Below are positions 2,290-61,090 of a stretch of 64,000 bases of DNA, one piece after another. The notes under the pieces are model-generated. The model was not told the origin of the DNA, did no database searches, and saw nothing but the letters and a program-made list of their open reading frames with translations. The stretch's first letter is position 1. The number at the start of each line of letters is the position of its first letter. Source of the stretch: Cyanidioschyzon merolae (Eukaryota); the NCBI GenBank assembly GCA_000091205.1, contig AP006500.2. The stretch is one strand, 5' to 3'. Made by a program: the position numbers and the translations under genes.

Positions 2290-3366
2290 TCGATTCTGGA
2301 ATACCGCCACCAAACGCCGTTCGAAAGTCGAACGACGCCAACGGTGTACAGTAGTGGCGAGTGACCCGCCCTAGACAAGACGTCTCCAAGTGACGTGCAG
2401 ACGCCATCCGATCTTTCTCGACCGGCCACCTACGACTACTGCTCCCAACTTCTTCTCATATAGTTCGACTTTTGGAGGTTGTTCCACAAAGTTCTCCCGT
2501 GTCAACTCTGGAGGTCTCGTCTCTATCACCGCACATCTCCTTATATTGGTAGCGGCATTAAGGTCTCGGTTCACAAACTCCATACGTTTCTTGCAATCAT
2601 TGGTTGTACGTACTCATGCGAGTAGCCCTCGAAGTCTCGCTCTCCTTTCCATTTGCTCCTCCGTCAGCGGTCCATACTTTTTTATATCTTCAGGGCTCCG
2701 CTGACACTTTTCCATCTCCACTGTCTGAAGTGTACACCCCTGTTCATGGTGTGTATACGAGGTTCGGAACTCATCTACAGGTATCGTAACGAAACGCCGT
2801 GCGCCCTCCTTGTACGTTCTTGTCGTTGGAGCTGGCGTAGTCCCTTTTTGGGTCTTCCATCGCCTTGCTCCGTACGCTACGACGAGCCTCTGATTTCCAT
2901 CCTCCTTCAGGTCACTCAACTGATTGAAAAAATTCGCGAACGCCCGCTGCTCCCCACAATACAAATTCATTCGCAAACGAGCCCGCCGGGGCTTGGTATA
3001 CTCCTCCCACAGCGCATCCCAATGGGCAACGCGAACTTTCATGAATTTCCGAAAAGCTGCAAAGTCCGCGCCTCGTCTAGTCACCTCGCTCAAAGCTTCC
3101 AGGTGCTCTTTCATTCCTGAGTTCCAAGTCTCGATTTTCTTCCTCGCATTCATTATACCGGATTCTCGATAGTATCTTGCTCTCGAGAGCCTCAAAAGAC
3201 GCATGTCTTTCTGACGTAAGTTACCATCAGTCCCATCTTCCGCACACTTTGGTACAGAGATGGTTATGATGCTCGTATTCCCAGGGTCCGCGCCAACGAC
3301 AAAGTCGTTATCCTGCACCTCCTGCATCGCAGGATCCGCATCATTCTCATCTACATCCTTCGCCAG
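2290..3366 (-). mobile_element. Fanzor/TnpB-like element, copy 1 (5-prime truncated; RuvC core plus conserved 3-prime tail)
   Basis: Minus-strand ORFs 2614..3327 and 2371..2583 together encode VVGADPGNTSIITI (RuvC-I), VAYGARRW...IPVDEFRTSYTHHE (RuvC-II/ZnF region) and FVNRDLNAATNIRRC (RuvC-III). The 3-prime tail 2290-2410 is nearly identical to the tails of copies at 52.3 kb, 56.2 kb and 59.4 kb. The reading frame is broken between the two ORFs. Confidence 0.75.
2371..3327 (-). pseudogene. Fanzor-like RuvC nuclease remnant (frameshifted, N-terminal region missing)
   Basis: The RuvC-I/II/III motifs are present, but the frame changes between ORF 2614..3327 and ORF 2371..2583. Only the C-terminal ~300 aa of the ~800-aa family protein is represented. 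Confidence 0.7.
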
Positions 3367-4420
3367 GGGCGAAGCCGAGGACGGACCAGGAAGCGGGCCC
3401 GACGGCGCTGGAGGTGCAGAAGAACGCGTTTGTCGTTGGCGTGGATCCCGGGAACACCCACATCGTTACCATCGCAGCACCCAAGCGTGAGGAAGATGGC
3501 TCTGTCGGCAACTTACGTCAGAAAGACATAAGTCTGTTGAAGCTCTCATGAGCGAGATATTACCAAGAATCCGGTATAATGAATGCGACGGAGAAAAGTG
3601 AGACATCGAACTCAAGAGTGAAGGGAATTTGGAAGCGATCAGCCGGGTGACGAGCCGCGGAGCCGACATTGAAGCGTTTCGAGAGGTTATGAGCATTCAC
3701 GCAGCTGATGACGAGAGCTTTTGGAAAGAATGCACAAAGTTCAGGTGGGCTCGTCTGCGTATGAACCTGTACTGTAGGAAGCAGCGAGCATACGCCAGCT
3801 TTTTCAATCAATTGAGCGCCCTCAAGGAGGACATGAGCCAAAGGCTCGGAGTAGCATACGGGGCAGGGCGCTGGATGACCCAAAAAGGGTGTACACCAGC
3901 TCCAACGACAAGAACGTACAAGGAGTGCGCACATCGTTATGTCGAAATACCTTTAGATGAGTTTCGAACATCTCATACACACCACGAGCTGTGTTGTACA
4001 CTTCAGAGGGTCGCGATGGAGAAAAGCCAGCGGCTCGCTGACGGAAATGCAAATAGCAAGGAGGGCGAAACTTCGAGGACTACTCGCTTTGGTTCGTAAA
4101 ACTAATGATAGGAAGAAACGAATAGAGTTCCTGGACTGAGACTTTAACGCCGCCATCAGTATAAGGAAATGTGCAGTACTGGAAAGAAGACCCCCGGAGT
4201 TGGCGAGAGCCAACTTTGCGGGGCAACCTCTTAAAATGGAGTGATACGAGAAGAAGTTGAAACCAGTAGTAGGTGGCCAGTTGCTGAACGCCAGCACAGT
4301 CGTCTGCACATCATTGGGTAGACAATCGGTCTACGGCGGACGGTGTGAGAAACGCCACCATTGTACACTGGCTTTCCAGCGTTTCTCTTTTGCAAGGCGT
4401 TTGGTGGTGTTTCCAGAGAC
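3367..4420 (+). mobile_element. Fanzor/TnpB-like element, copy 2, inverted relative to copy 1 (heavily frameshifted pseudogene)
   Basis: The plus strand from 3406 encodes EVQKNAFVVGVDPGNTHIVTIAAPK, matching RuvC-I. ORF 3629..4099 carries VAYGAGRWMTQKG...IPLDEFRTSHTHHELCC. From 3957 the sequence encodes RIEFLD, and after a frame change FNAAISIRKCAVLERRPPEL. There are multiple frame breaks. A diverged version of the conserved tail lies at 4280-4400 as the reverse complement of the other copies' tails. Confidence 0.65.
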
Positions 4421-36989: not shown

Positions 36990-38950
36990 ACGCTACCGGC
37001 AACGAGAAGGCCGCGAATCCGACGCCGCCACGGGCGATATTCGGAGGTGGTGGCGGCTGCGGCCGCCCGCCGTTGCCAGGATTTCTGGCGGTACGCCTCC
37101 CGGTCTACTTGGACTAGGCACCTGCTGCTGATTTTGTTTTCTGCTTATATGATATCACCTTAAGAGGTTGCCCGACAAAGCTGGCTCTCATTAGCTCCGG
37201 GGGTCGCTTAATCATCAACACGCATCTTTCTATATTGATAGCGGCGTTAAAGTCTCGGTTCACAAACTCTATACGTTGATTGCCGTCGGTAGTTGTACTC
37301 ACCAGTGCGAGTAGTCCAGGAACTTTTGCCCTGCTTTCCATTTGCTGTTTGGTCAGCGCTCCGTACTTTTTTATATCCTCAGAGTTCCACTGGCACTTTT
37401 GCATCTCGACCCTTTGGATTGTACACCTCGGCTCGTGGTGTGTATGTATGACGTTCGGAACTCATCTATCGGTATTGTGAGAAAACGGTGTGCGTACTCG
37501 TTGTACGCTCGTGTCGACGGAGCGGGCGTAGACTCTTTTTCGGACGCCCAGTGCCCTGATCCGTACGCTACTATAAGCCTTTGTCTCTCGTCTTCGTTCA
37601 GGGCACTCAACTGGTTGAAAAAGTTGGCAAATGCACGCTGCTTCCCATAGTATAAGTTCATGTGCTGACGAGCCCACCGGGCGGCTTGGTATACTCCTTT
37701 CACAGCTCCTCGTCATGAGCAGCGCGAAGTGGTATGAATTCTCAGAGGGCTCGAAAGTTCGCTCCGCGACTCGTCATTTTGCTGAACTCCTCCCTGCTTA
37801 CATCGAACTTCGGACTGATCTCTTTCATGATGCCGTAAAGGGCTGCGGAGTCGATTGTCACAAAATGTGCATTGATCTCGCATAACGGAACGACATGGAA
37901 GCGCTTACCCGGAAACGCAGCCATTCGTTTCTCCGACTCTTCATTTGCTTGCACACCTGGTTCCATCTCCGCCTTGCGTTCGAGTTCTCGGTCCAAAAAC
38001 ACGAAAGGGCGCAGGATTAGGCGATAGCATCTTTCTTCATCTTTTTTCAACGCTGGCATCTTTTTGTGCTCAGTTGACAAACCCTAGGACCGTGCGGCGC
38101 TCTTGGATGGCCACATGGAGTAGAGAAGCTTCATTCCTTCTCCTGCGTGACGTCTTCCTGTCGACGAATTCGATCTTCTGTTCATGCTGGCGATCGTCCG
38201 AAATGCCATTGATGATGGTCCGTATCCTTTTGCGAGAGAGGCGCGGGTAGAGTCCAAACATGGAACGTATCATGAAACGTTCGAGGTTCATGTTCAAATG
38301 GTTTTTCAGATTCGTGAGACACTTTTTAGACCCGTATTCATACATATTATCGTGACCCCTGTATCGAGTACTGTTGGAGCGGAATTTGGCGTAATTTTCG
38401 TGGAGGCCCTGCACTCGCTCATTTCTCCTCGACATTTCATATGTGCCCAGTATCAAGTGGCGAATGAAGGTCTTGTTGAAAAATTCCTTCGGAATCTCGG
38501 TTGTTTCCATATGCGTCACGTCGCGATTCGTCTCCCACACCAAATGCACGAGTCCTGAAGAACCGTTTCGAATGCTACTGGAGTAGGACGCCACACGCTT
38601 TCTGATAGTCTCGTCCATCCTTGTCTCGTACGGATCCTTGCAATGTCCAAGAAGACAGGGTTTCACTACCATCTCGATGCACTGTCGTCTTTCTTGCAGC
38701 CATTGACGTCTGGCCTCCTGCCTTAGCTTCTTCGTGTTGTCTCGTTCATCCGGGATCGGCTCTGTTTTCGTTTCTTTCCGTCAGCCGGCGACAGTGGTCC
38801 TCCAGGATCCTCCACTTCCATGTCCATAGCTTGCCTTTTTACTTTTGAAAAAGAACGCACTTTAGACACTTCTGCTATAGACCCCGGAAAATCACTTGAG
38901 TAGACTATACTGGAGATTAAAGTACAATGGAGATGAAAAACTATGCTTCG
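36990..38950 (-). mobile_element. Fanzor/TnpB-like element, copy C (RuvC core partly deleted; N-terminal extension retained)
   Basis: Minus-strand ORFs 37114..37404 (FVNRDFNAAINIERC = RuvC-III), 37371..37703 (VAYGSGHW...IPIDEFRTSY), 37742..38080 and 38070..38672 are homologous to the N-terminal ~400 aa of the 52-55 kb copy, at roughly 55% aa identity. For example, HENYAKFRSNSTRY...KKCLTNLKNHLNMNLERF aligns with HENYAEYRFERTRY...KKYLTNLKNHLTMYPERF. The flanking ends are homologous to copy A at both LE (38760-38950) and RE (36990-37130). The RuvC-I region is absent. Confidence 0.7.
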
Positions 38951-48411: not shown

Positions 48412-51400
48412 GTGTCGTTCGCGGTGGCAATGGCGTTCGTTACTTTCGGGGTCGTGTCTGGAGGCACCGGGCGGCAACCGCTAGCTGACAGGTCACCGGC
48501 GTTCTTGAATCAGCACCCAAGAAAGACAAGCCGATCGGTGCGGTGTCGACGGCGAAGATTCTCGCGTAAAGTGTCTCGAAGATGTCTGCTGAAGCTCTGC
48601 AGCGTTGCTGAACGACAGTCATCCGACTCGGTGCGACGAGAGCAGGGACAGAAGCGGGGCAGCAGTAGCAGCGCCAGCAGCCGTGATGAGCGCTATGCGC
48701 GGAACGCAGCGGAACAGCGCCAGGCAAGCGACTCTGTATCGACGGAGACGCGAGCCCGAGTGTCTCGAGCGCTCCTACAGGGCGCGCAGGGGGTGGGCCT
48801 CGGCCTCTACTGGATTGCTCGGCAAGCGGTGCGTGTATGTGTGCCGATGGCTCGCTCGGCGTTTAGCCAGCTGTCAACGCTTGTGCAAGACCATTCCAGT
48901 CGCGCGTTCACCTCAGTGGGGGTCCAATCACAGCCAGAACCGCATCATAAGCCGTACGTTGCATCTGAAGCGGACGAGGCAGCGCGGGCGCGGCCTAACG
49001 ACACAGCCGTTGGTGCGGATCGTGCTCAGCGGCGATCTAATCATAAGAAACGGGGGCCACGTTCAGGTCCACCATCGGGAGCGAATGCTCCAGAGCAAGC
49101 AGACGAGATGTCAGCTCGACTGCGGAGAAAGTACCTTCGATCGTTTGGGAGCATTCCGGAAGTTGTACTCTTTGACCTTGTCGCCGAATGTGAAATGCGA
49201 AAGCAATTTGCGCTACCAGAGGAGACTCCATCAAATATGTCGCTTTTAGGGCAGCGAGCCTGCTATATCCCGTATGAGCTGCAGCGCATTATTTTCGACG
49301 AAATTTTGACGCCAGATTTTGCCGCCTCTGACGCTGACCGCGATCTGTTTCAGAGCAGCAATACATCCATTCCGCTCGGCGCCAAACACACGTTGCGAGC
49401 TACAGACGGCTCAGCGGCGTCCACCCCGAGAGCACCCGAGGTCGCTGTGCCGGTTCCCGTTCATATCATGGATTCGCTGGTGGCGGCTGTGGCACCCTGG
49501 AGCGCCGGCACTGGGAGTCCGGGGAGCGCACCAAAGGCGGCAAATTCGCCGAATGATTGGAGTCAAACTGCGACAGCGCCTCGAGTCGGGGTCCAGGGCG
49601 AGTCGCCGGCATCTACTTCCAACCTGGACGATATGGTACCTGCAGCAGCAGCAGCAGCGGCAGCAGCAGCAGGGCAAGTATCCGTGGATTCTTCCGCCCG
49701 CAGGGGCAGCATGCTGTACATCCCGATATCGGCGCTCGGGAGCTTGTGGCAAGCCATCTCGGCAATGAGTGCGGGCGGACGCAAACGGCGCGAGGAGGCG
49801 CAACGTATTCGTACGTACTCGAATGCCGCCGACGCTATGGCTCGCGAGGATGCCGTTATGGCGGGTCTCGCTGGCGCAGACGGTGGAAGCACCATGGCCT
49901 CGGCATTTGCAACAGCGAGCGCCATTATGGCGAGCACACCGACGCGATCGCCATCGATACCCGTGCAGGGCGCCGAGGCTGGAACTACCGCTAGTACGCG
50001 CGAAACGGAACAGAAGGCCTCGCGTCCAACAAATGGATCCGTGGAATCAATCGAGGTATTGAGCAGACCGCAGGCATCGGCTGCCAACTTGGGCAATCAG
50101 CAGAAGCGAGATCGCACGGAGTCGAAAGAGGGGACGGGTGCGAAGCAGAGCGCACCAGTGAACCCGTCATCAGCGTCTGCTGCATCCGCTGCAGCTACCA
50201 GTACAGAAGTAGCTGCAGCGGATGCAGCAGAAAGTCCTCTGTCGAAAGACAAGACGAGAAACTGGTGGTCGACGCTTTTCTCGTTTACTTGGCCACGCCC
50301 GCGGAACGCTGTCGACTCGGGATCTGCGACTGCGACTAACTCGGAGGATCATGCAATTGAATCCATCCAGCGCCTGTTGCTTTCACGACATTACGGGGCA
50401 GGCGCTGGCCATGGCCCTGTGGATGCTGCCGTCTTCGATGAGCTCGTCGATCGAGTGGAGCAGCTGACGCTTCGCGCTGCAGCAGAAGCGGCCATGGCGA
50501 TTCGCACGCGAAAACAAGCCATTGCATTTCTGGAAGAGGTAGGTGTGGCACCGTTGTTGAATGCACTGAGCATGACGGACTCGCTGCAGCTCTCGAGGCC
50601 GGATGCTGGACGCCGCAGGAACAGCAACAGCAACACCAACCTAGACGATGAAACCGCATCACAGAGAAAGCGCCCACAACAAGAACAGCAACGTGAAGCC
50701 GCCTTCACGGTATCCCTAGCTGTGGCTGCACTCGCAAATCTGACCAACGTCTTGCCTCGCTGCAAACCGCAAATCCTTCGTTATCCAGGCCTCTTGGATG
50801 GTCTGTTGCGTATCTTGGAAGCACCGGTAGCCGGAGAGTCATGGGAGATGCAAGGCAAGTGGAGCGCATGTATGCTCATCGGCACCCTGATGATGGATGC
50901 TGCCACGAGCGATCGTGCCCTCTTCTTCCGGAATCGTCGACTGGTTCGCGTGCTCGAGTCCATGGCAGGCGGCACACGGGTCGGCTACCCGGAGGATGTT
51001 GCACGGGCATCGCGTCGGGCGCTCGCTTGTCTGGGCGTGCATCACTGGAGGCCGCGCGTTCGAGGCCAGCGCGGTTTGCGCATCCTTGCACTTGACGGAG
51101 GTGGCACTCGGGCGCTCATGTCTTTCGAGATTCTGAAGCACCTAACCAAATTGACTGGCTGCCAGTTGCATGAAATGTTCGATATCATTTGCGGAACCTC
51201 GACGGGGGCGATTATTGCCGGCTCGTTGGGGATTCGCCGGCGTCCAGTTGAGGAGGTCGAGAGCCTCTACCGTGAACTAATCGGCAAAATTTTCGCCAAA
51301 AAGCTGAGCAGTGCGCCGAAAATGTTGCTCACTCGGGCCTACTACGATACGGACTTGTTTGAGAGCATTCTGAAACGTGAGGCAGGCTCATTGCGGATGA

Positions 51401-52284
51401 TTGATTCCACCATGGACCGGGATATGAACTACGTGTTCTTCGTAAGCTCCGTGATGAATCGACGTCCGCACCAGCTGCATCTGTTTCGAAACTATTGCCA
51501 CGCACCAGGCCAGGAGTCCAGATACCCAGGGACTGTGGATGCAACCCTATGGCAGGGTATGCGGGCCTCGTCGGCGGCTCCGACGTTTTTTTCGGAAATT
51601 GTATTGAATGGACTCATTCACGCAGATGGAGCTCTGGTTGCGAATAATCCCGCAGGGGTGGCAGCGCACGAGGCACGCCGCTTGTTCCCGAATGTGCCTA
51701 TCGAGCTCTTGGTGAGCGTGGGAACCGGAGTCGCCGAGAAGACTAGCCCTCTATCGCCGCTAAGCACCACGGACAGTGGTGTGTCCACGGGCACCAGAGA
51801 GGGCAGCGGTGGCGACGGCGGTGCCTCAACCGAGAGCGAAGCTGCGAGTGCGCTTCGTGAAGCTGCCACGACTTCGGCGATTTCCGCAAGTGGTGGTGAT
51901 GGTGCAGATGCCGCAGCTGCTGCCGTCCCGAGCCGAATGAGCTGGAACGACGTGATCAACTCGATTGTGGACTCTGCAGTCGGCACCGAGAGTGTGCATC
52001 ACATCCTGGAAGATGTGTTGCCTGCAGATGTTTATTTTCGATGCAATCCAGAGATCAGCGTGATGAATATTGATGAGGTTCGTCCCGGCAAGCTCATGGA
52101 AATGATTCGATGTGCACAGGACTACATCGCCGCGAATGCTGATCGCTTTGATGAGTTAGCGGCACGGCTGCGCCCGAAAATGCCCCAGAATTTACTAGAA
52201 CGGATCCGTTTTGAGCTGCAACAGGAGGCCAGTCTGATTCTCGACTTGGACGATGCACGGGAAGGGCCACTTCCTGCGCTTTAG
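48412..52284 (+). CDS. Patatin-like phospholipase (iPLA2-like) with long N-terminal low-complexity and ARM/HEAT-like region, 1290 aa
   Basis: The patatin catalytic motifs are the oxyanion-hole LALDGGGTRAL, the nucleophile elbow GTSTGAI (GxSxG) and the catalytic Asp in IHADGALVANNPA (DGA/G). They are preceded by repeats such as LANLTNVLPRC...LLDGLLRILEA. The N-terminal ~600 aa is low complexity, and the true start may be downstream of 48412. Confidence 0.85.
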   Translation: MSFAVAMAFVTFGVVSGGTGRQPLADRSPAFLNQHPRKTSRSVRCRRRRFSRKVSRRCLLKLCSVAERQSSDSVRREQGQKRGSSSSASSRDERYARNAAEQRQASDSVSTETRARVSRALLQGAQGVGLGLYWIARQAVRVCVPMARSAFSQLSTLVQDHSSRAFTSVGVQSQPEPHHKPYVASEADEAARARPNDTAVGADRAQRRSNHKKRGPRSGPPSGANAPEQADEMSARLRRKYLRSFGSIPEVVLFDLVAECEMRKQFALPEETPSNMSLLGQRACYIPYELQRIIFDEILTPDFAASDADRDLFQSSNTSIPLGAKHTLRATDGSAASTPRAPEVAVPVPVHIMDSLVAAVAPWSAGTGSPGSAPKAANSPNDWSQTATAPRVGVQGESPASTSNLDDMVPAAAAAAAAAAGQVSVDSSARRGSMLYIPISALGSLWQAISAMSAGGRKRREEAQRIRTYSNAADAMAREDAVMAGLAGADGGSTMASAFATASAIMASTPTRSPSIPVQGAEAGTTASTRETEQKASRPTNGSVESIEVLSRPQASAANLGNQQKRDRTESKEGTGAKQSAPVNPSSASAASAAATSTEVAAADAAESPLSKDKTRNWWSTLFSFTWPRPRNAVDSGSATATNSEDHAIESIQRLLLSRHYGAGAGHGPVDAAVFDELVDRVEQLTLRAAAEAAMAIRTRKQAIAFLEEVGVAPLLNALSMTDSLQLSRPDAGRRRNSNSNTNLDDETASQRKRPQQEQQREAAFTVSLAVAALANLTNVLPRCKPQILRYPGLLDGLLRILEAPVAGESWEMQGKWSACMLIGTLMMDAATSDRALFFRNRRLVRVLESMAGGTRVGYPEDVARASRRALACLGVHHWRPRVRGQRGLRILALDGGGTRALMSFEILKHLTKLTGCQLHEMFDIICGTSTGAIIAGSLGIRRRPVEEVESLYRELIGKIFAKKLSSAPKMLLTRAYYDTDLFESILKREAGSLRMIDSTMDRDMNYVFFVSSVMNRRPHQLHLFRNYCHAPGQESRYPGTVDATLWQGMRASSAAPTFFSEIVLNGLIHADGALVANNPAGVAAHEARRLFPNVPIELLVSVGTGVAEKTSPLSPLSTTDSGVSTGTREGSGGDGGASTESEAASALREAATTSAISASGGDGADAAAAAVPSRMSWNDVINSIVDSAVGTESVHHILEDVLPADVYFRCNPEISVMNIDEVRPGKLMEMIRCAQDYIAANADRFDELAARLRPKMPQNLLERIRFELQQEASLILDLDDAREGPLPAL

Positions 52285-52500
52285 GGGATGGACAAGCCAC
52301 CACCGCCGTTCTAAGTCGAACGACGCCAACGGTATACAGTAGTGGCGACCGGCGCCCTAGACGAAACGTCTCCAACTGACGTGCAGACGCCTCCCCGCCT
52401 TTTTGGACCGGCCACCTACTACTGCTTCCAACTTTTTCTCGTATAGTTCGACTTTGAGAGGTTGTCCAATAAAGTTCCCTCTTCATGACTTTGGAGGTGT
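52285..52500 (-). ncRNA. Predicted omega-RNA (guide RNA scaffold) region of Fanzor-like copy A, overlapping the C-terminal codons and the 3-prime tail
   Basis: The ~200 nt at the 3-prime end of the element is far better conserved at the DNA level between copies (2290-2410, 52285-52480, 56160-56280, 59385-59500) than the ORFs are. It contains the block gcgtctgcacgtcagttggagacgtttcgtctagggcgcc and the block gccactactgtacaccgttggcgtcgttcgac (minus-strand reading). In TnpB/Fanzor systems the omega-RNA maps here. Confidence 0.4.
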
Positions 52501-54794
52501 TTTCTCCAGCACCGCACATCTCCGTATATTGATAGCGGCATTAAAGTCTCGGTTCACAAATTCCATACGTTTCTTCCCATTGGTAGTTGTACTTACTAGT
52601 GCACCTAGTCCTCGCACTTTCGCTCTACTTTCCATTTGCTCCTCCGTCAGCGGTCCATACTTTTTCATATCCTCAGGGCTCCTCTGGAAATTTTCCATAT
52701 CCACTCTCTGAAGTGTACAACCCAGCTCATGGTGTGTGCAGGACGTTCGAAACTCATCTACAGGTATTGTAACAAAACGCCTTGCGCACTCCTTGTACGT
52801 TCTTGTCGTTGGAGCTGGCGTAGTTCCTTTTTGGGTCTTCCAGCGCCCTGCTCCATACGCTATTACGAGCCTTTGAGTCTTGTCTTCTTTGAGGGCGCTC
52901 AACTTATTGAAAAAGTTCGCGAATGCCCGCTGCGTCCCACCGAATAGATTCATTCGCAAACGAGCCCACCGGGGCTTGATATACCCCTCCCACAGCGCAT
53001 CCCAATGGGCAACACGAACTTCCATGAATTTCCGAAAAGCTTCAAAGTCCGCGCCTCGGCTCGTCACCTCGCTCGAAGATTCCAGGTGATCCTTCATTCC
53101 TGCATTCCATGCAGCAATTTTCTTCCTTGCATTCATTATACCGGACTCTCGATAGTATCTTGCTCTCGAGAACCTCAACAAATGCATGTCTTTCAGACGT
53201 AAGTTGCCGTCAATGCAATCTTCCGCACACTTTGGTGCTGCGATGGTAATGATATTCGTGTTCCCAGGGTCCATGCCAATGACAAAGTCGTTATCCTGCA
53301 CTTTCTGCGCCGCAGGACCCGCCTCGTTCTTTTCTTCATGCTTCGTCGCGTCAAGCATAAAGGCGTTATCCTGCACCTCCTGCATCACAGGATCCGCCTC
53401 CTTCCCAACTTCATCCTTCGTCACATCAACGATAAAGTCGTTACCCTCAATCTCCTGCGCCACAGGATGCTCCTCTTTGTTTTCTTCATGCTTCGCCGCG
53501 TCAACGACAAGCTTGTTATCCTCCACCTCCTGCGTCGCAGGTTCCGCCTCCTTCTCATCTCCATCCTTCGCCACGTCAACGAGAAAGTCATTATCCTCCA
53601 CCTCCTGCGTCGCAGGATACACCTCTTTGTTTTCTTGATCCTTCGTCACGGGTGCAGCCGAGTGAGGGACTGGCCGATCTCTCTTCAACCGCCGATAGTG
53701 TGCACACAAGGCTACTCCATCGGTTTCGATCATCCCAGTGAACAACTTTTGCTTGCTCACTCTCAGGCGTTTGAAATCGAAGATGTTCTTCCAGTACGTC
53801 TTCCGGTTTTCACCGGAGAATTCCTCCCTGCTGACACTGAACCCCGGACTGATCTCCTTAAAGATGCCGTAAAGGACGCCGGAGTCGATAGTCTCAAAAC
53901 TTGAATTGATCCTGGACAACGGATCAGCGTGGGAGCGATTCTCCAGAAGCGCAGCCTTCCCTCTCTCCGACTATTCGTTTTTTCCACACCCGGCTCCATG
54001 TCGGCCTTGCGTCCGTGCTTTCGGTTCAGAAACATGAAACAGCGCAGGATTAGTTGATAAAATCTCTCTTCGTGTTTTTTCATATTAGGTAATTTTCCTG
54101 TTGGACTGAGTAGCCCCAAGACCGCACGGTGCTCTTGAATAGTCGCGCGGATTACGGAAGCTCCATTTGTGCTCCTGCGTGATGTCTTCTTATCGACAAA
54201 TTCGATCTCATCTTCATACTTTCGATCGTTCGTGATGCCGTTGATCATCCCCCATATTCCTTTGCGAGAGATGCCCGGGTAGAGTGCAAACACGGCGCAT
54301 ATCATGAAACGTTCCGGGTACATAGTTAAATGGTTCTTCAGATTCGTGAGGTACTTCTTCGGCCCGTAGGCGTAAATACACGAGTCAACCCTGTATCGGG
54401 TACGCTCGAAGCGGTATTCGGCGTAGTTTTCGTGGAGAGCGTGCACTAGCACATTTTCCTTCCGCGCTTCCCCTGTACCAAGCATCAGGTGACGAATAAA
54501 GGTCTTGTGGAAAAACTCGTCTGGAATCTAGACCGTTTCCATGTGCGCCACATCGCGATACATCTCCCTCGCCAAATGCATCAGTCCTGACGACGTCTTG
54601 ACAATACTCTTGGAGTACGAGTCGACACGTTTTTTGATAGCGTCCCGCAACTTTTCCTTGTAGGGATGCTTGATATGTCCAAGAAGAAAGGTTTTCACCA
54701 CCATCTCGTCGTACAGCCGTCTTCCTTGCCGCCTTCGACGTAGGGCCTTACCGTTTCGGTCCTTCTTCTCTTCTTTTTGTTCTGGACTCGGCAC
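52483..54794 (-). pseudogene. Fanzor-like RNA-guided endonuclease homolog (TnpB-like RuvC nuclease with N-terminal extension), disrupted by one in-frame stop and one frameshift as assembled
   Basis: Motifs as for the parent element. D-x-NAA-x-NI is the TnpB/Cas12 RuvC-III signature and G-x-D-x-G-x-T/N the RuvC-I signature. The lesions could be real or could reflect unannotated introns or assembly error. Confidence 0.7.
53270..53650. repeat. About six units of a ~63-bp tandem repeat inside the copy A ORF (encodes acidic 21-aa repeats EVxDNxFxVDxxKxExxKEAxPA)
   Basis: Visible as repeated ...tcaacga(c/g)aa(a/g)(g/c)t(c/t)(g/a)tt(a/c)tcct(g/c)cacctcctgc(g/a)tc(a/g)caggat(c/a)c(g/a)cctcc.. units. 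The last unit runs straight into the RuvC-I motif [13 protein letters not shown]. Confidence 0.8.
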
Positions 54795-55238
54795 TATATT
54801 TGGGTTTTTTTGGCAGCCGGCGACACTGGGCCTCCAGGATCGTCGACTTGCTATTTACTAGCTTTTCCGTTTTTTAGTTTTTTTTTGAAAAAGAACACTC
54901 TTTGAACGCTTCTTTTATATTCTACGAATAAACACTTGACTAGACTTGTTTGAGGGCTGGAACAAAAACGAACTGAAAGACTGTACCTGGCTAAGACCTC
55001 AACAGAAAACCAACTTTTTACAGCTGAACACCACGCTATTGATACCAATCGAGTTTCCCTTTAACGGCGACGCGGCGCTTTCGGAACTCGATCCGCCGCA
55101 TCTCCCGGCTGGATCCTGCTGCGGTTCAGAGACCGCAAGTCGAAAAGTGTGTGGCTGTAGTTGAAGGCAAATATGGTGCACCACGCGGCAGTAAACAACA
55201 GAAATAGGTTGTGAGACGCGACAGTCGTGCGATGAAGT

Positions 55239-56030
55239 GTGTGGCGGCTTCTGCAGCGCTCGTCGTCAGCCACTCTTTTAAAACATATTGTCGTTCTTCT
55301 ATCAACTGTGTTTGCAGAAGACTCTACTGTAAAACGTTTGACCAGGTGTGATTCGAAACGATCGGAAATGTTGCGCAAAGTATCCTTAGTGTTCCTGGTG
55401 ACCCTGCTCTACGTGCTCGCTGCAGTTGTGTCGAAGCCGGTGCGTGGGCTCTCTCAGAGCAGCACGATTGCCGAGCTGCTCGCTGCGTCTCCAAGCTCGT
55501 ACCTGCAGAACGCGCTCACAAGCGGTGCGTTTCTCGTGAATAACTCAGCCGGAAGTATTCAGTTGTTTGACGTTACACAGAACTCGTTGTTAACGAGCGT
55601 GGGCCTCTCTACCCTGATATCCACGTTGAACAAGTGCGGTATCCAGGAGCTGCACGTGCAGACGGACGCGATCGAGTACGCGTACGTTGTTGAGGGTGAG
55701 GGCACTTTCACGCTGTGGTCGTCTAACGGCTCGGTGGTATTGTTGAAGGCCCCCTTGAAGCCTGGCGACGTGGCGATTATTCCAGCCGGCTGGCCGCACT
55801 TTTTCACCGGGTCCGAGACGTCCACGACGCCGCTGGTCTTTGTCTCGACATTCACCAGCGGAGAGCCACAGGTTTATTTCCTGGCTGGTGCTGGGAATCT
55901 ATTCGCGAACGTGCCATCCGAGGTCGGTAGCAGTCTGTTTAATGTTACCGCGTCGCAGTACGGATCGTTTTTCAGAGCGGAATCGACTGTGGGTGTCGTC
56001 TTTAATGAGACCTGTTTGGGGAATGCCTGA
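55239..56030 (+). CDS. Cupin/germin-like protein with an N-terminal hydrophobic anchor or signal
   Basis: A 263-aa ORF with a hydrophobic stretch LVFLVTLLYVLAAVV. Cupin motif-2 is matched by PGDVAIIPAGWPHFFTG (G-x5-P-x-G-x2-H-x3-G/N). A motif-1-like region reads GIQELHVQTDAIEYAYVVEGEG. The gene sits between two Fanzor-like elements. Confidence 0.5.
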   Translation: MWRLLQRSSSATLLKHIVVLLSTVFAEDSTVKRLTRCDSKRSEMLRKVSLVFLVTLLYVLAAVVSKPVRGLSQSSTIAELLAASPSSYLQNALTSGAFLVNNSAGSIQLFDVTQNSLLTSVGLSTLISTLNKCGIQELHVQTDAIEYAYVVEGEGTFTLWSSNGSVVLLKAPLKPGDVAIIPAGWPHFFTGSETSTTPLVFVSTFTSGEPQVYFLAGAGNLFANVPSEVGSSLFNVTASQYGSFFRAESTVGVVFNETCLGNA

Positions 56031-56159: not shown

Positions 56160-58640
56160 TAGCGAGCCCCTTTCAAAACAAAAACGCTGCCGCTATCAGT
56201 ACAAAAGTGGCTACCAACGCGCCCTAGACGAAACGTCTCCAACGGACGTGCAGACGCTTCCCAGTCTTTTTGGACCGGCCACCTACTACTGCTTCCAACT
56301 TTTTCTCGTATAGTTCGACTTTGAGAGGTTGTCCAACAAAGTTCTCTCGTGTCCACTCTGGAGGTCTTTTCTCCAGCATCGCACATCTCCGTATATTGAT
56401 TGCAGCGTTAAAGTCTCGGTTCACGAATTCCATACGTTTCTTGCCATCGTTCGTTGTACTCACCAGTGCGAGTAATCCCCGAACTTTCGCCCTCCTTTCC
56501 ATTTGCTCTTCCGTCAGCGGTCCGTACTTTATTATATACTCAGGGCTCCTCCGACGCTTTTCCATCTCAACCCTTTGAAGTGTGCACCCCAGTTCATGGT
56601 GTGTAAACGATGTTCGGAACTCATCTATTCGTATCGTAACGAAACGCCTTGCGCACTCCTTGTACGTTCTTGTCGTTGGAACTGGCGTGCTCCCTTTTCC
56701 GGGTACCCAGAGCCCTGCTCCATACGCTACTACAAGCCATTGGCTCGTCCCCTTTGAGGGTGCCCGACTCATTGAAAAAGTTGGCAAATGCACGCTGTTT
56801 TCCGCAGTACAGATTCATATGCAGACGAGCCCACCTGAGCTTCGCGTACTCTTCACACACCTCCTCGTCATGAGAAACGCGAATTTTCATGAATTTCGGA
56901 AGAAAAAAAGAAAGTTCAATCGACGGCTCGTCACGTGCCTGATCGCTTCCAGATTCTCCTTCACTCTTGCGTTCCATTTCTCACTTTGATTCCTCGCATT
57001 CATCATTGCTTGTTCTCTGTACTAACTCTCTCTCGAGAACTTTAAACGACGCATGTCGCTCTGGCATAAGTTGTCGTCAGCGCCATCTTCCAAACGTTTG
57101 GGTGCTACGATGGTTATTACATTCGTGGTCCCGAGGTTAAGGCCGACGACAAGATCGTTATCCTGGGGATTATACGTGCCAGGGCCCGTCTTCTTGTGTT
57201 CGTGCTTCGGCAAGGGCGACAATGTAGATGAGGTAGGACGATCTGCCTTCAAGCGCTGATAGTGTACACATATGGATTTCCCATTGTAATCGATCGTCCC
57301 CGTGAATGCCATTTTTTGCTCGTTTTGAGGCTCTTGAAATCGAAGATATTCTTCCAGTACGTCTTCCGGTTTTCACCGGAGAATTCCTCCCTGCTGACAC
57401 TGAACACCGGACTGATCTCCTTAAAGATGCCGTAAAGGACGCCGGAGTCGATAGTCACAAAACTTGAATTGATCCTGGACAACGGATCAGCGTGGGAGCG
57501 ATTCTCCAGAAGCGCAGCCTTCCCTCTCTCCGACTATTCGTTTTTTCCACACCCGGCTCCATGTCGGCCTTGCGTCCGTGCTTTCGGTTCAGAAACATGA
57601 AACAGCGCAGGATTAGTTGATAAAATCTCTCTTCGTCTTTTTTCAAATTAGGTAATTTTCCTGTTGGACTGAGTAGCCCCAAGACCGCACGGTGCTCTTG
57701 AATAGTCGCGCGGATTACGGAAGCTCCATTTGTGCTCCTGCGTGACGCCTACTTGTCGACAAATTCGATCTCATCTTCATGCATGCGATCGTTCGTGATG
57801 CCATTGATAATTGCCCAGAATCCTTTGCGAGAGATGCCCGGGTAGAGTGCAAACACGGCGCATATCATGAAACGTTCCGGGTACATAGTTAAATGGTTCT
57901 TCAGATTCGTGAGGTACTTCTTCGGCCCGTAGGCGTAAATACACGAGTCAACCCTGTATCGGGTACGCTCGAAGCGGTATTCGGCGTAGTTTTCGTGGAG
58001 AGCGTGCACTAGCACATTTTCCTTCCGCGCTTCCCCTGTACCAAGCATCAGGTGACGAATAAAGGTCTTGTGGAAAAACTCGTCTGGAATCTAGACCGTT
58101 TCCATGTGCGCCACATCGCGATACATCTCCCTCGCCAAATGCATCAGTCCTGACGACGTCTTGACAATACTCTTGGAGTACGAGTCGACACGTTTTTTGA
58201 TAGCGTCCCGCAACTTTTCCTTGTAGGGATGCTTGATATGTCCAAGAAGAAAGGTTTTCACCACCATCTCGTCGTACAGCCGTCTTCCTTGCCGCCTTCG
58301 ACGTAGGGCCTTACCGTTTCGGTCCTTCTTCTCTTCTTTTTGTTCTGGACTCGGCACTATATTTGGGTTTTTTTGGCAGCCGGCGACACTGGGCCTCCAG
58401 GATCGTCGACTTGCTATTTACTAGCTTTTCCGTTTTTTAGTTTTTTTTTGAAGACGGACGCGTTTCTTACGTGTCTACTATAAACCACGAAAAACACTTG
58501 ACTAGATATGTTTGAGGTGTGAAACAAAAACGAACTGAAAGACTGTACTTGGCTACGACCTGAACGGAAATCCAACTTTTTTCGGTAGAACAACACGCTA
58601 CTGATCAGGATGGCGTTCCCCTTCGACGAAGGCATGCGCA
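56160..58640 (-). mobile_element. Fanzor/TnpB-like element, copy B (rearranged, internally deleted)
   Basis: Minus-strand ORF 56224..56793 carries VAYGAGLW...IRIDEFRTSFTHHELGC...FVNRDFNAAINIRRC and the full C-terminal tail ...GKRLHVRWRRFV. The fragments 57022-57682 and 57749-58357 are near-identical to 54000-54900 of copy A. ORF 58091..58357 is 88/88 aa identical to ORF 54528..54794. Confidence 0.75.
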
Positions 58641-59384
58641 TCGTGTCAGTTGACTGACTGATCTCCCAGTTGCGCTCATTTAGCGCAATGCATCCACTGC
58701 GCGCGACGCTACTCCGATCGATGAAGGACACGTGTCCGATACCCCGCCTTGGCACATGCGTGTTCGCATCCCACTGCAGCCAAAATAAAGTATCGTAGAT
58801 CGCAAACTCACGTAGAATGATCTCTTGCTACAGGCTCTGTCGCTGGTGCCCATTGCAGTACCGCCCTGACATACGTGGAGATGTAGGGGCCTGGCACGAT
58901 ACCTCGCGATGCTTCTAACAAAAGCATCGCGTTCTCTGCGGCTTACACTTGTGTGGATAAGGTACACAACACTGTACTCAATAGAAATTTCGTTAATTTT
59001 ATTGATCGTATATAAACAAGACACGGAATGATTCCTGACCAAGGATATTCGTTTAATCAATATGCTTGTTATGCATGCCGCACCGACACTGGAATAAGGA
59101 CCTGAACTGAAATTTGCATCTATCCGGCGTCATGGGCTGGAACTGATACCCGTTCAAGTCATTGCCATCCTGCCGTGGTTGTCCAAGTAATGGTGCCTGC
59201 TTCGTCCTCCGGATCCGGCGATCTTGGCAGAGGCAGAGCACGTAGGTAGCGTCCAAGTCTGCCACGAGGTTTGAGCCTTGCATCTCGCCTGGCACGATCG
59301 TGGCACTTGACAAAAGCGCATACTGTATTCTGGTCTACTCTATCAGATTATTTTCAAGAGCCTAACCCGTACATCGAGCCCGAA

Positions 59385-59650
59385 CGAGGCACCCCTGGAA
59401 AGAAACGCCTTTCGAAAGTCGAACGGCGCCAGCGGTGTACAGTAGTGGCGAGTGGCCCGCCCTAGAAATGACGTCTGCAACTGACGTGCAGACGCATCCA
59501 AAATAAGATACCACCTCAGGAAATTTCCTTATACCTCCTCTACGGTATTCGTCGGCGAGCTACGTGGAAGTTCGTCTACGATTGTTGTGATCTCTGAGCG
59601 CAGCACTGCGGAACCCTTGGCACCAATTACTGATGAGGTTGTTGATGGGA
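59385..59650 (-). mobile_element. Isolated 3-prime tail fragment of the Fanzor-like family (copy D; no adjacent nuclease ORF)
   Basis: The stretch ctggaaagaaacgcctttcgaaagtcgaacggcgccagcggtgtacagtagtggcgagtggcccgccctagaaatgacgtctgcaactgacgtgcagacgcatcc is near-identical to the tails at 2290-2410 and 52285-52400. Similarity decays by ~59650, and no RuvC-encoding ORF is seen between 59650 and 59880. Confidence 0.65.
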
Positions 59651-59880
59651 AGCATAGGAGTTCTGTCTAGTTTCTGAAAAAGACACTGAGCGCTTGTGCT
59701 AGATGTGCTCAACGCTAGACAGTCTACGGGAGATTTAGGTCGGACTCTGGACAATTGACGGGCGATCACTCGTGCAGCTACGCAAAAGAAGTTTTTTGCT
59801 GGATACGCACACCTATGCGAGCGATTCTAGCCGGTGACGTGATCGGCAGCTTTGCACCGGAGAAAATCTAATCCAAGAAA

Positions 59881-61090
59881 ATGCAAGCCCTATTCGTTTC
59901 TGTTCCGCTGTACCAGGAAAGACATATTGTTTGCGCGCGCGCTGCAACTCGAGCACCGTTCCCGCTGTGTACCGAACATGACAGGTGCTTCGCAGCTCGA
60001 TACCGTCACCGCTGTCACCATCCGCTGCCCGTGGGGGTGCAGCGTTCGCCTGTAGTGCGCCGGCATCGTATGCCGCATCTTCGTATGGGCCCGAAACAGT
60101 CGCAGATCGCCGTGATCACTGGCTCGTCCTCTGGGGTCGGTCTGTATGCAGCTCGCGCTCTGATCAACAAGGGCAACTGGAACATCGTCATGGCATGTCG
60201 TGACGTCGACCGGGCGGAACGTGCAGCAAACAGCGTGAACCTTCCAAAGGACGCCTATACAGTGCTGCATTGTGATCTGGCAGATTTCGCCTCTGTGTTG
60301 AAGTTTGTGAGAGCGCTATCGAGTGTGGCGCGCATCGATCACCTGGATGCCCTGATCTGCAATGCCGCAATATGGCATCCGCAGGACAAGAAACCGCGTT
60401 TCACGGTGGGCGGCATCGAGGAAACCATGCAGGTTTGCCATCTGAGCCATTTGCTTCTCTGTGGGGAGCTGTTGCCGAAGCTGAAAAAATCGCGCAGGCG
60501 CATTGTGTTTCTGACGACTCAGACACACTCGCCGAATTCGTTGCCGGGAAAGATCCCCCGCTGGCTCGTCTCGGGGATTCGTCTAGTCTAGCCGCGGGGC
60601 TTGGTCCGCAGACGACGGACATGGTAGAAAGTGGCCCGTTTGAGCCCACAAAAGCTTTCAAAGACGCCAAAGCCGAGAACGTGTTGACAATGAAGGCGCT
60701 CAGTGATCGATACGGCCGCGACGGGGTGACCTCTGTGGCGATTTTCCCGGGATGTGTCGCCGACAGCAACCTCTTCCGCGAAAAGCGTGGCTGGTTCCGC
60801 TACGTATTCTTCCCGATTCTTCAGAAGTACATCACTCGGCAATACTTTCCCAATGATGAGGCCGGACGCCGTGTAGCCGAAATGGCGACCCAGGGACAGT
60901 TCTCGGACTCGGGCTCGTATTATCAGTGGCGTGGCAAATATACGGATGGGGGATAGAAGACGAAACCGCAGGTTATTGAACCAACGTACGAAATCGACAA
61001 GGCAGATCAGCTTTACGAACTGAGTCTTGATCTGATCGACCAGGCTTTACGGAGGCGAGGCCTCAAGTCGACTACCTTGGTCCCTGTCTA
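59881..61090 (+). CDS. Light-dependent NADPH:protochlorophyllide oxidoreductase (LPOR, SDR family). As assembled it has a 1-nt frameshift in a C5 run at ~60553-60557 and an in-frame TAG at 60957-60959. The mature domain probably starts near 60100.
   Basis: Frame 1 reads IAVITGSSSGVGLYAARALINKGNWNIVMACRDVDRAERAA...YTVLHCDLADFASVLKFV...LICNAAIW. Frame 2 reads GKDPPLARLGDSSSLAAGLG...AFKDAKAENVLTMKALSDRYGRDGVTSVAIFPGCVADSNLFREKRGWFRYVFFPILQKYITRQY. Together these align colinearly with plant and algal POR (ITGASSGLG...VIMACRD...YT.MHLDLAS...NAAVY...YKDSKVCNMLTMQE...YPGCIATTGLFREH..LFP.FQKYIT.GY). After the TAG the frame continues KTKPQVIEPTYEIDKADQLYELSLDLIDQAL, which aligns with the POR C-terminal helix. 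Confidence 0.8.

Follow-up and report, generated by a model that had tools for sequence, protein, structure and literature searches.

A single Fanzor1 family, CMe-1A, was listed for the red alga Cyanidioschyzon merolae by Bao and Jurka (2013, PMC3627910), who recorded ~150 copies, ~80% identical to a ~3-kb consensus and in some cases intact, for which no terminal inverted repeats (TIRs) or target site duplications were found. The same study described two residues, G500 and E536, as "extremely conserved in Fanzor1", and included a C4 zinc finger in the general Fanzor motif, as do the signature patterns of 2023. The relocation of the RuvC-II glutamate in these proteins was shown by mutagenesis and cryo-electron microscopy (cryo-EM) in 2023-24 (PMC10530073, PMC10432273, PMC11832414). 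The canonical residue is replaced by glycine or proline, with an alternative glutamate ~45 residues downstream, and the substitution E467A abolishes cleavage by ApmFz2 (Jiang 2023, PMC10530073), for which the shifted glutamate has been confirmed in the protein structure (PMC11832414). According to the cryo-EM structure of SpuFz1, D383, N385, E541 and D606 serve as ligands for a pair of Mg2+ ions (Saito 2023, PMC10432273), and the spacing of 36 residues between G500 and E536 is that between G505 and E541 of SpuFz1. Yoon et al. (PMC10711439) defined "DPG + Ealt" as a Fanzor signature and described a TDG motif for Fanzor1, while the same glutamate-to-glycine rearrangement has been observed in the TnpB clade RIIr-5 (Altae-Tran et al., PMC10691335). 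Here we compare with these systems a gene copy located on a 64,000-nucleotide stretch of C. merolae contig AP006500.2 (assembly GCA_000091205.1), hereafter the window, for which an original prediction, made from the sequence alone, had proposed a RuvC nuclease with a rearranged active site.

The interval flagged by the original prediction lies within a 478-codon open reading frame (ORF; 52483..53919, reverse strand), which is the longest remaining ORF of a gene copy, c52, whose boundaries were placed at 52296..55061 (-) by self-blastn. As delimited by the ORF list and an AlphaFold2 model, this ORF encodes the end of the WED domain, an acidic repeat linker, the RuvC-I and RuvC-II regions, a degenerate TNB/NUC domain and RuvC-III. 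We interpret the region, with a probability of roughly 0.88, as that half of a Fanzor1 gene, now decayed, which encodes the RuvC nuclease and is carried on a CMe-1A element, intact members of which are predicted from alignments and structure models to possess a Fanzor-type D-E-D site. The family in the window is almost certainly CMe-1A itself, a multi-copy element for which a transposon class has not been assigned. The two agree in host organism, element size (~3 kb), multi-copy nature, copy identity (~80%) and absence of TIRs, and no substantive difference is apparent; the 2013 description did not read the conserved glycine and glutamate as a relocated catalytic site.

The residue correspondences on which this interpretation is based were derived from a hidden Markov model (HMM) alignment to SpuFz1 and from a separate MAFFT L-INS-i alignment with 75 full-length family members (~30-40% identity), for which SpuFz1 residues 248-633 were taken from the HMMER alignment text, and the two alignments agree. 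The SpuFz1 chain in the PDB is a maltose-binding protein fusion with a numbering offset of 394, where D777, E935 and D1000 represent D383, E541 and D606, respectively. In the RuvC-I motif GMDPGNTN (53254..53277, -), D217 (53269-53271) aligns with D383 of SpuFz1 (VIDPNKRD, compared to vDPGRtnI in the family) and is invariant (75/75), as is the glycine two residues further on, while the intervening proline, and with it the complete DPG triplet, is found in 71/75 members. The strand LVIAYGAGRW (52840..52869, -) carries G356 (52852-52854) at the canonical RuvC-II glutamate site, equivalent to G505 of SpuFz1 (VVMGDWS, vvAYGsak in the family), and this glycine is likewise found in all 75 members. 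Downstream thereof, in IPVDEFRTS (52741..52767, -; DEFRTS at 52741-52758), E389 (52753-52755) aligns with E541 (LLDEYKTS, vvdEFRTs in the family) and is conserved in 74 of the 75 sequences, the last of which has an aspartate. The RuvC-III motif FVNRDFNAAINI (52525..52560, -) contains D458 (52546-52548), which corresponds to D606 (WNRDMLS, vNRDlNAA in the family), and both this aspartate and the preceding arginine (R605 in SpuFz1) occur in 75/75 sequences.

The D-E-D site of an intact protein would accordingly be composed of the aspartate of the DPG motif at the end of β1 (D217 in the window), the glutamate of dEFRTS just after β5 (E389) and the aspartate of RDxNAA (D458), with which the last helix begins, with the invariant glycine (G356) at the end of β4, where the glutamate of TnpB and Cas12 is situated. 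The secondary structure predicted by AlphaFold2 for the window ORF is consistent with an RNase-H-like site, placing D217 near the end of a strand (211-218), G356 at the end of another (350-356), E389 after a third (383-387) and R457-D458 at the start of a helix (457-470). From the homology to the solved Fanzors we infer that E389 and its equivalents would take part in catalysis, that the 3′ end of the element would give rise to an RNA which an intact protein could bind and that, loaded with this RNA, the protein would cut DNA matching the flanking guide.

The original prediction had stated that the homologous strand lacks acidic residues. This holds for all five copies of the gene in the window (LVIAYGAGRW, LVVAYGARRW, LGVAYGAGRW, LIVAYGSGHW and LVVAYGAGLW), and positions 351-360 are also acid-free in the 75 full-length relatives, with the exception of one sequence at position 357. 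As the same is seen in so many relatives, with the glycine and glutamate conserved at the frequencies given above, the acid-free strand is not a product of chance. The proposed strand consensus, L(V/I)(V/I)AYGAGRW, was slightly too strict, given variants such as AYGARRW, AYGSGHW, AYGAGLW and LGVAYG, and the actual pattern is xAYGxGxW. For the second motif, (I/V)P(V/I/L)DEFRTS, the DEFRTS portion was correctly called in all five copies (IPVDEFRTS in two, IPLDEFRTS and IPIDEFRTS in one each), but the remaining copy, with IRIDEFRTS, falls outside the consensus. The distance of about 35 residues proposed between the two motifs compares well with the 33 residues separating G356 and E389. That an intact paralog might conceal a glutamate within the strand is ruled out by the 75-member alignment, and the proposed placement in the rearranged, Fanzor-type branch is supported by the homology to Fanzor1 and the alignment of E389 to a known Mg2+ ligand. 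Most of the distant relatives have a conserved glutamate in a loop, 'GGKGE(V/I)SVPT', which separates the AYG strand from the alternative glutamate. This residue ('GGKGE.SVPT') was considered as a compensating residue and rejected, as its position is occupied by threonine throughout the C. merolae clade (KGTTPAPTT) and lacks an equivalent in SpuFz1.

The family belongs to Fanzor1 rather than to bacterial TnpB, and its place in the rearranged branch is supported by alignments to a structure already solved, by matches in fold and by the topology of the secondary structure. A profile built from 82 sequences matches the solved Fanzor1 proteins PpFz1 (E = 2.7e-19) and SpuFz1 (E = 1.8e-13), and GtFz1 with E = 0.2. 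When the AlphaFold2 model of P0005, an intact 752-amino acid relative sharing 68% identity (pLDDT [predicted local distance difference test]: 81.9; pTM [predicted template modelling score]: 0.79), was compared against the PDB with Foldseek, the top seven matches were to SpuFz, PpFz and GtFz (E-values: 7e-16 to 3e-13; target TM up to 0.73), followed by Cas12 (E-value: ~6e-3). The model of the window ORF (pLDDT: 75.1) likewise retrieved Fanzor1 first (E-value: ~5e-8; 18-19% identity over ~280 columns), with ISDra2 TnpB as the next best match (E-value: 9.8e-4); both models have good confidence except in a disordered linker. The predicted full-length bilobed fold (WED/REC/RuvC/NUC) is closer to the solved Fanzor1 proteins than to Fanzor2, TnpB or Cas12. 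With SpuFz1, PpFz1 and GtFz1 (8GKH, 9CF0 and 9CER) the family shares, besides this fold and the profile homology, the DPG motif at RuvC-I, the TDG hallmark of the Fanzor1 WED domain (IETDG; 53716..53724, -; T66, D67 and G68 nearly invariant), glycine at the canonical site, an alternative glutamate downstream (Fanzor1 range: ~35-50 residues) just before [TS][TS], in the form (D)E(F/Y)(R/K)TS, and the RD motif at RuvC-III. Carriage by eukaryotic or viral transposable elements, as seen in the five copies within 64 kb and in relatives linked to a DDE_3 transposase, is a further Fanzor1 trait. The family differs from the three solved proteins in that the identity is only 13-19%, the zinc ligands are replaced, an acidic tandem-repeat linker precedes RuvC-I and no TIRs were found. 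Compared to canonical TnpB (ISDra2) and Cas12f, the glutamate expected at the end of the RuvC-II strand is an invariant glycine, the fold aligns over only ~230 residues, the zinc finger is lacking and no IS200/605 or IS607 TnpA is associated, with no tnpA gene of either the Y1 or serine recombinase type located next to any copy in the window. The hallmarks of Fanzor2, namely a TnpB-sized protein, a fold closest to TnpB and an IS607-type element, are not displayed either.

Several observations weigh against this interpretation. Searches of Pfam or the PDB that start from one sequence, or from a profile of narrow range, retrieve no Fanzor, TnpB or Cas12: comparisons of the window ORFs against Pfam yielded only a sub-threshold match to Cas12f1-like_TNB, at the RD motif (E = 0.22), six close relatives had no Pfam match, and phmmer comparison of the ORF, as well as a 15-sequence profile, against the PDB gave chance matches only. 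Recognition of the family therefore requires a wide profile or a structure model; the gathering score of Cas12f1-like_TNB (26.3) is reached by a few distant members (P0150: 27.1 bits; P0190: 26.6 bits). Furthermore, the family lacks the C4 zinc finger listed in the published Fanzor/TnpB signature, every local copy is broken, and of 80 metagenome loci retrieved by a query from the C. merolae clade only two retain a full ORF. Lastly, when the three-hairpin structure predicted for the 3′ end of one copy was imposed on the aligned 3′ ends, 80% of the cells were paired and covariation was 0.103, compared to 0.114 in shuffled alignments.

The zinc finger, a motif of the form CxxC...CxxC between the alternative glutamate and RuvC-III, is common to SpuFz1 and ISDra2 TnpB. 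Its place in the window is taken by a TNB/NUC-domain equivalent (52561..52740, -; alignment to SpuFz1), where C548, C551, C586 and C591 of SpuFz1 correspond to H396, L399, L441 and a further non-cysteine position, and none of the four cysteines occurs in the C. merolae clade. Across the family the first position is occupied by H, D, Y or C, the second by D or T, the third by C in 52/75 members and the fourth by a gap or Q. The four cysteines occur together in none of the 75 full-length members, where at most one is conserved (RGLLWC, 52/75). Loss of the zinc finger has been reported for some prokaryotic TnpB branches (PMC10691335), while no report of such a loss in Fanzors was found in the literature searched. 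Bao and Jurka nonetheless assigned the C. merolae protein to Fanzor1, and we therefore treat the family as a zinc-finger-less subgroup of Fanzor1 instead of excluding it.

The joint absence of the canonical glutamate and the C4 zinc finger could also be taken as a sign of inactivation and not of rearrangement, with the family representing a Fanzor derivative that is catalytically dead or has been exapted, for instance as an RNA-guided DNA binder, and inactivated TnpB derivatives are on record (PMC10691335). This is improbable, given that the D, E and D residues, as well as the DPG and RDxNAA motifs, are essentially invariant across relatives sharing ~30% identity, that the same arrangement of glycine and glutamate is active in SpuFz1 and ApmFz2, and that the family is still transposon-borne and multi-copy.

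The original prediction had further treated the aspartate and glutamate before FRTS as a conserved pair. The glutamate is indeed conserved, but the aspartate (D388; codon 52756-52758, -), which aligns with D540 of SpuFz1, is present in only 55/75 relatives, being replaced by C, P, S, N or E in the others (C, P, S or N in 18). It might be argued that D388, alone or together with the glutamate, supplies the third catalytic carboxylate, as it adjoins E389 and as SpuFz1 (LLDEYKTS) and PpFz1 (LIDEFRTS) also carry an aspartate there. Such variability at a position next to a nearly invariant glutamate, together with the published identification of E541, and not D540, as the Mg2+ ligand, makes this very improbable, and E389 is retained here as the probable second member of the D-E-D site.

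All five copies in the window are pseudogenes, and none is able to make the protein. The copies were identified by tblastn and self-blastn, at 2306-3362 (-), 3390-4338 (+), 37093-38906 (-), 52296-55061 (-) and 56200-58623 (-), along with one solo fragment of ~97 nt. When c52 was compared by tblastn with P0005, an intact relative, the matches spanned residues 1-752, spread over two frames and interrupted by stops. Translation places an in-frame stop (METV*IPDEF; 54528..54530, -) in the N-terminal region, which is common to c56, while a frameshift (53925..53979, -), visible in the three-frame translation and as a frame switch between tblastn matches, separates the N-terminal part of the gene, in the frame of ORF 53763..54485, from the 478-codon ORF. 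A third lesion is a stop ~7 codons upstream of the C-terminal tail that is otherwise conserved (KS*RGNFIG). Blastn and tblastn comparisons show that copy c2k (2306..3362, -) is 5′-truncated, with residues 460-751 left and one in-frame stop (GLLA*V), and that c4k (3390..4338, +) has two frameshifts and a stop in place of the RuvC-III arginine codon (FLD*DFNAA). In copy c37 (37093..38906, -) internal deletions have removed RuvC-I, in addition to frameshifts and a stop. Copy c56 (56200..58623, -) shares the METV* stop and the frameshift of c52 and has several other frameshifts and stops, with its RuvC-I motif mutated to GLNLGTTN (D to N). That these copies are still expressed as functional protein by means of introns, programmed frameshifting or readthrough is scarcely credible, for while the stop and frameshift identical in c52 and c56 could resemble a conserved recoding signal, the intact relatives P0005, P0114 and P0120 read through both lesion sites in one frame (which also rules out stop-codon reassignment or introns as the cause of the interruptions), the 94% identity between the 5′ halves of c52 and c56 indicates that the shared lesions were inherited, the lesions of the other copies are unrelated, including the loss of RuvC-I and the stop within RuvC-III, and introns are very few in C. 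merolae.

The 5′ halves of c52 and c56 (53672-55061 and 57236-58623, respectively), which have this stop and frameshift in common, contrast with the 3′ halves, where the identity is only ~78%, suggesting gene conversion or recombination between copies that were already dead. Copies c2k and c4k, both 5′-truncated, are arranged head-to-head with their truncated ends ~28 bp apart, and form a large imperfect palindrome with arms that are ~73% identical. Four metagenome loci (L024, L057, L062 and L030) are collinear with positions 56200-60300 of the window, which include c56 and the flanking host gene, at 75-85% identity, or ~94-98% in the case of L030. As the collinearity extends into the host gene, c56 appears to represent an old insertion common to related Cyanidioschyzon-like lineages. 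The solo fragment (59403..59499, -; self-blastn) matches only the 3′-terminal hairpin region of the element and is located ~780 bp upstream of c56, with the same layout in these four loci. The 3′ end of c52 is situated 12 bp from the stop codon of a convergent 1290-codon patatin-like host ORF (48412..52284), and that of c56 ~170 bp from a convergent host ORF (55239..56030). A search for TIRs around c52 yielded nothing convincing, in agreement with the 2013 description of CMe-1A, and no transposase gene adjoins the C. merolae copies in the window. Three long ORFs in the window match C. merolae 10D proteins exactly, namely CMR487C, condensin subunit D2 and a GATA factor, and the window sequence as a whole is eukaryote-like, with a GC content of ~55% and almost no introns.

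Homology among 45 copies breaks off sharply at ...CGTTCGACTTTCGAACGGCGTT, ~190 nt downstream of the c52 stop. The conserved ~100-nt terminal segment (52296..52396, -), delimited by the end of homology and by folding, is predicted to form three hairpins (minimum free energy z-scores: -1.3 to -3.4), resembling the three-stem Fanzor1 reRNA of Yoon et al. (PMC10711439), and represents a candidate omega RNA or reRNA scaffold. RNAalifold predicted essentially no consensus structure for the 45 aligned 3′ ends (-1.5 kcal/mol), with the same outcome for local predictions on sub-alignments, and comparison of the 3′ end against Rfam gave only chance sub-threshold matches (MIR156 and sR30). As neither these predictions nor covariation lend it support, the putative omega RNA is proposed on the basis of family membership. 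In most copies the ORF extends past the position of the c52 stop with a C-terminal tail, NF(I/V)GQPLKVELYEKKLEAVVGGRSKKxGRRLHVxWRRFV*, which overlaps the conserved 3′-terminal hairpins, an arrangement that resembles the overlap of the tnpB ORF with its omega RNA. Both c52 and the otherwise intact P0005 have premature stops in this region, different in each.

Between the WED and RuvC-I regions of the c52 ORF, Tandem Repeats Finder identified a 75-bp tandem repeat in five copies (53277..53650, -), encoding acidic units of 25 amino acids. This linker is disordered in both AlphaFold2 models, and the repeat number varies between copies and relatives. The 25-amino acid units, which directly precede the RuvC-I strand, each resemble a degenerate copy of the sequence leading into β1.

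Relatives of the family are abundant in hot-spring metagenomes, where more than 380 related stretches and many close relatives, such as P0005, were found. Protein searches also retrieved a more distant group at ~30-42% identity, and a search of the full protein library yielded 2,187 cluster representatives at E<=1e-3. Some relatives at ~35-42% identity are encoded directly downstream of a DDE_3 (IS630/Tc1-type) transposase, as in L086 (7395-9863) and L002-L005. Two of these, L002 and L003, are contigs of 4-5 kb with an imperfect ~30-bp inverted repeat, the two arms being 3.6 kb apart and ending in TATAC...GTATA, whereas L086 is a 560-kb contig dense in RNA polymerase subunit, TBP and photolyase genes, as is typical of a giant virus. 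These distant relatives match the IS630/Tc1-mariner-linked viral TnpB/Fanzor group (PMC10691335) and the Mariner Fanzor1 elements of Bao and Jurka (2013), from which the C. merolae copies differ in having no adjoining transposase gene. No recent work on Fanzors in red algae was found in the literature searched. We tentatively suggest, as a possibility at somewhat less than even odds, that the family forms part of a large Fanzor1 subgroup which reaches giant-virus-like contigs and IS630/Tc1-type transposons, and in which the C4 zinc ribbon has been lost and the D-E-D residues have remained invariant among the 75 members examined.

The rearranged site in the window is not new, but a documented feature in a documented element. 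The CMe-1A family and its conserved glycine and glutamate were described in 2013 and the relocated glutamate was shown in 2023-24, and the original prediction thus rediscovered a known feature. As a discovery it matters little, the relocated RuvC-II glutamate having been textbook Fanzor biology since 2023. Its practical value lies in the assignment of the probable catalytic residues by alignment to a solved structure, in the recognition that all five local copies are dead, and in the finding that standard sequence searches against Pfam and the PDB miss the Fanzor1 family of the window. The zinc-finger-less subgroup is the mildly novel point, with relevance for the mining of Fanzors by means of CxxC patterns and for the search for thermotolerant editors. 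C. merolae is a thermoacidophile living at ~45 °C. If the proteins of this subgroup are active, they would constitute zinc-finger-independent RNA-guided nucleases, some of them from a thermoacidophile.

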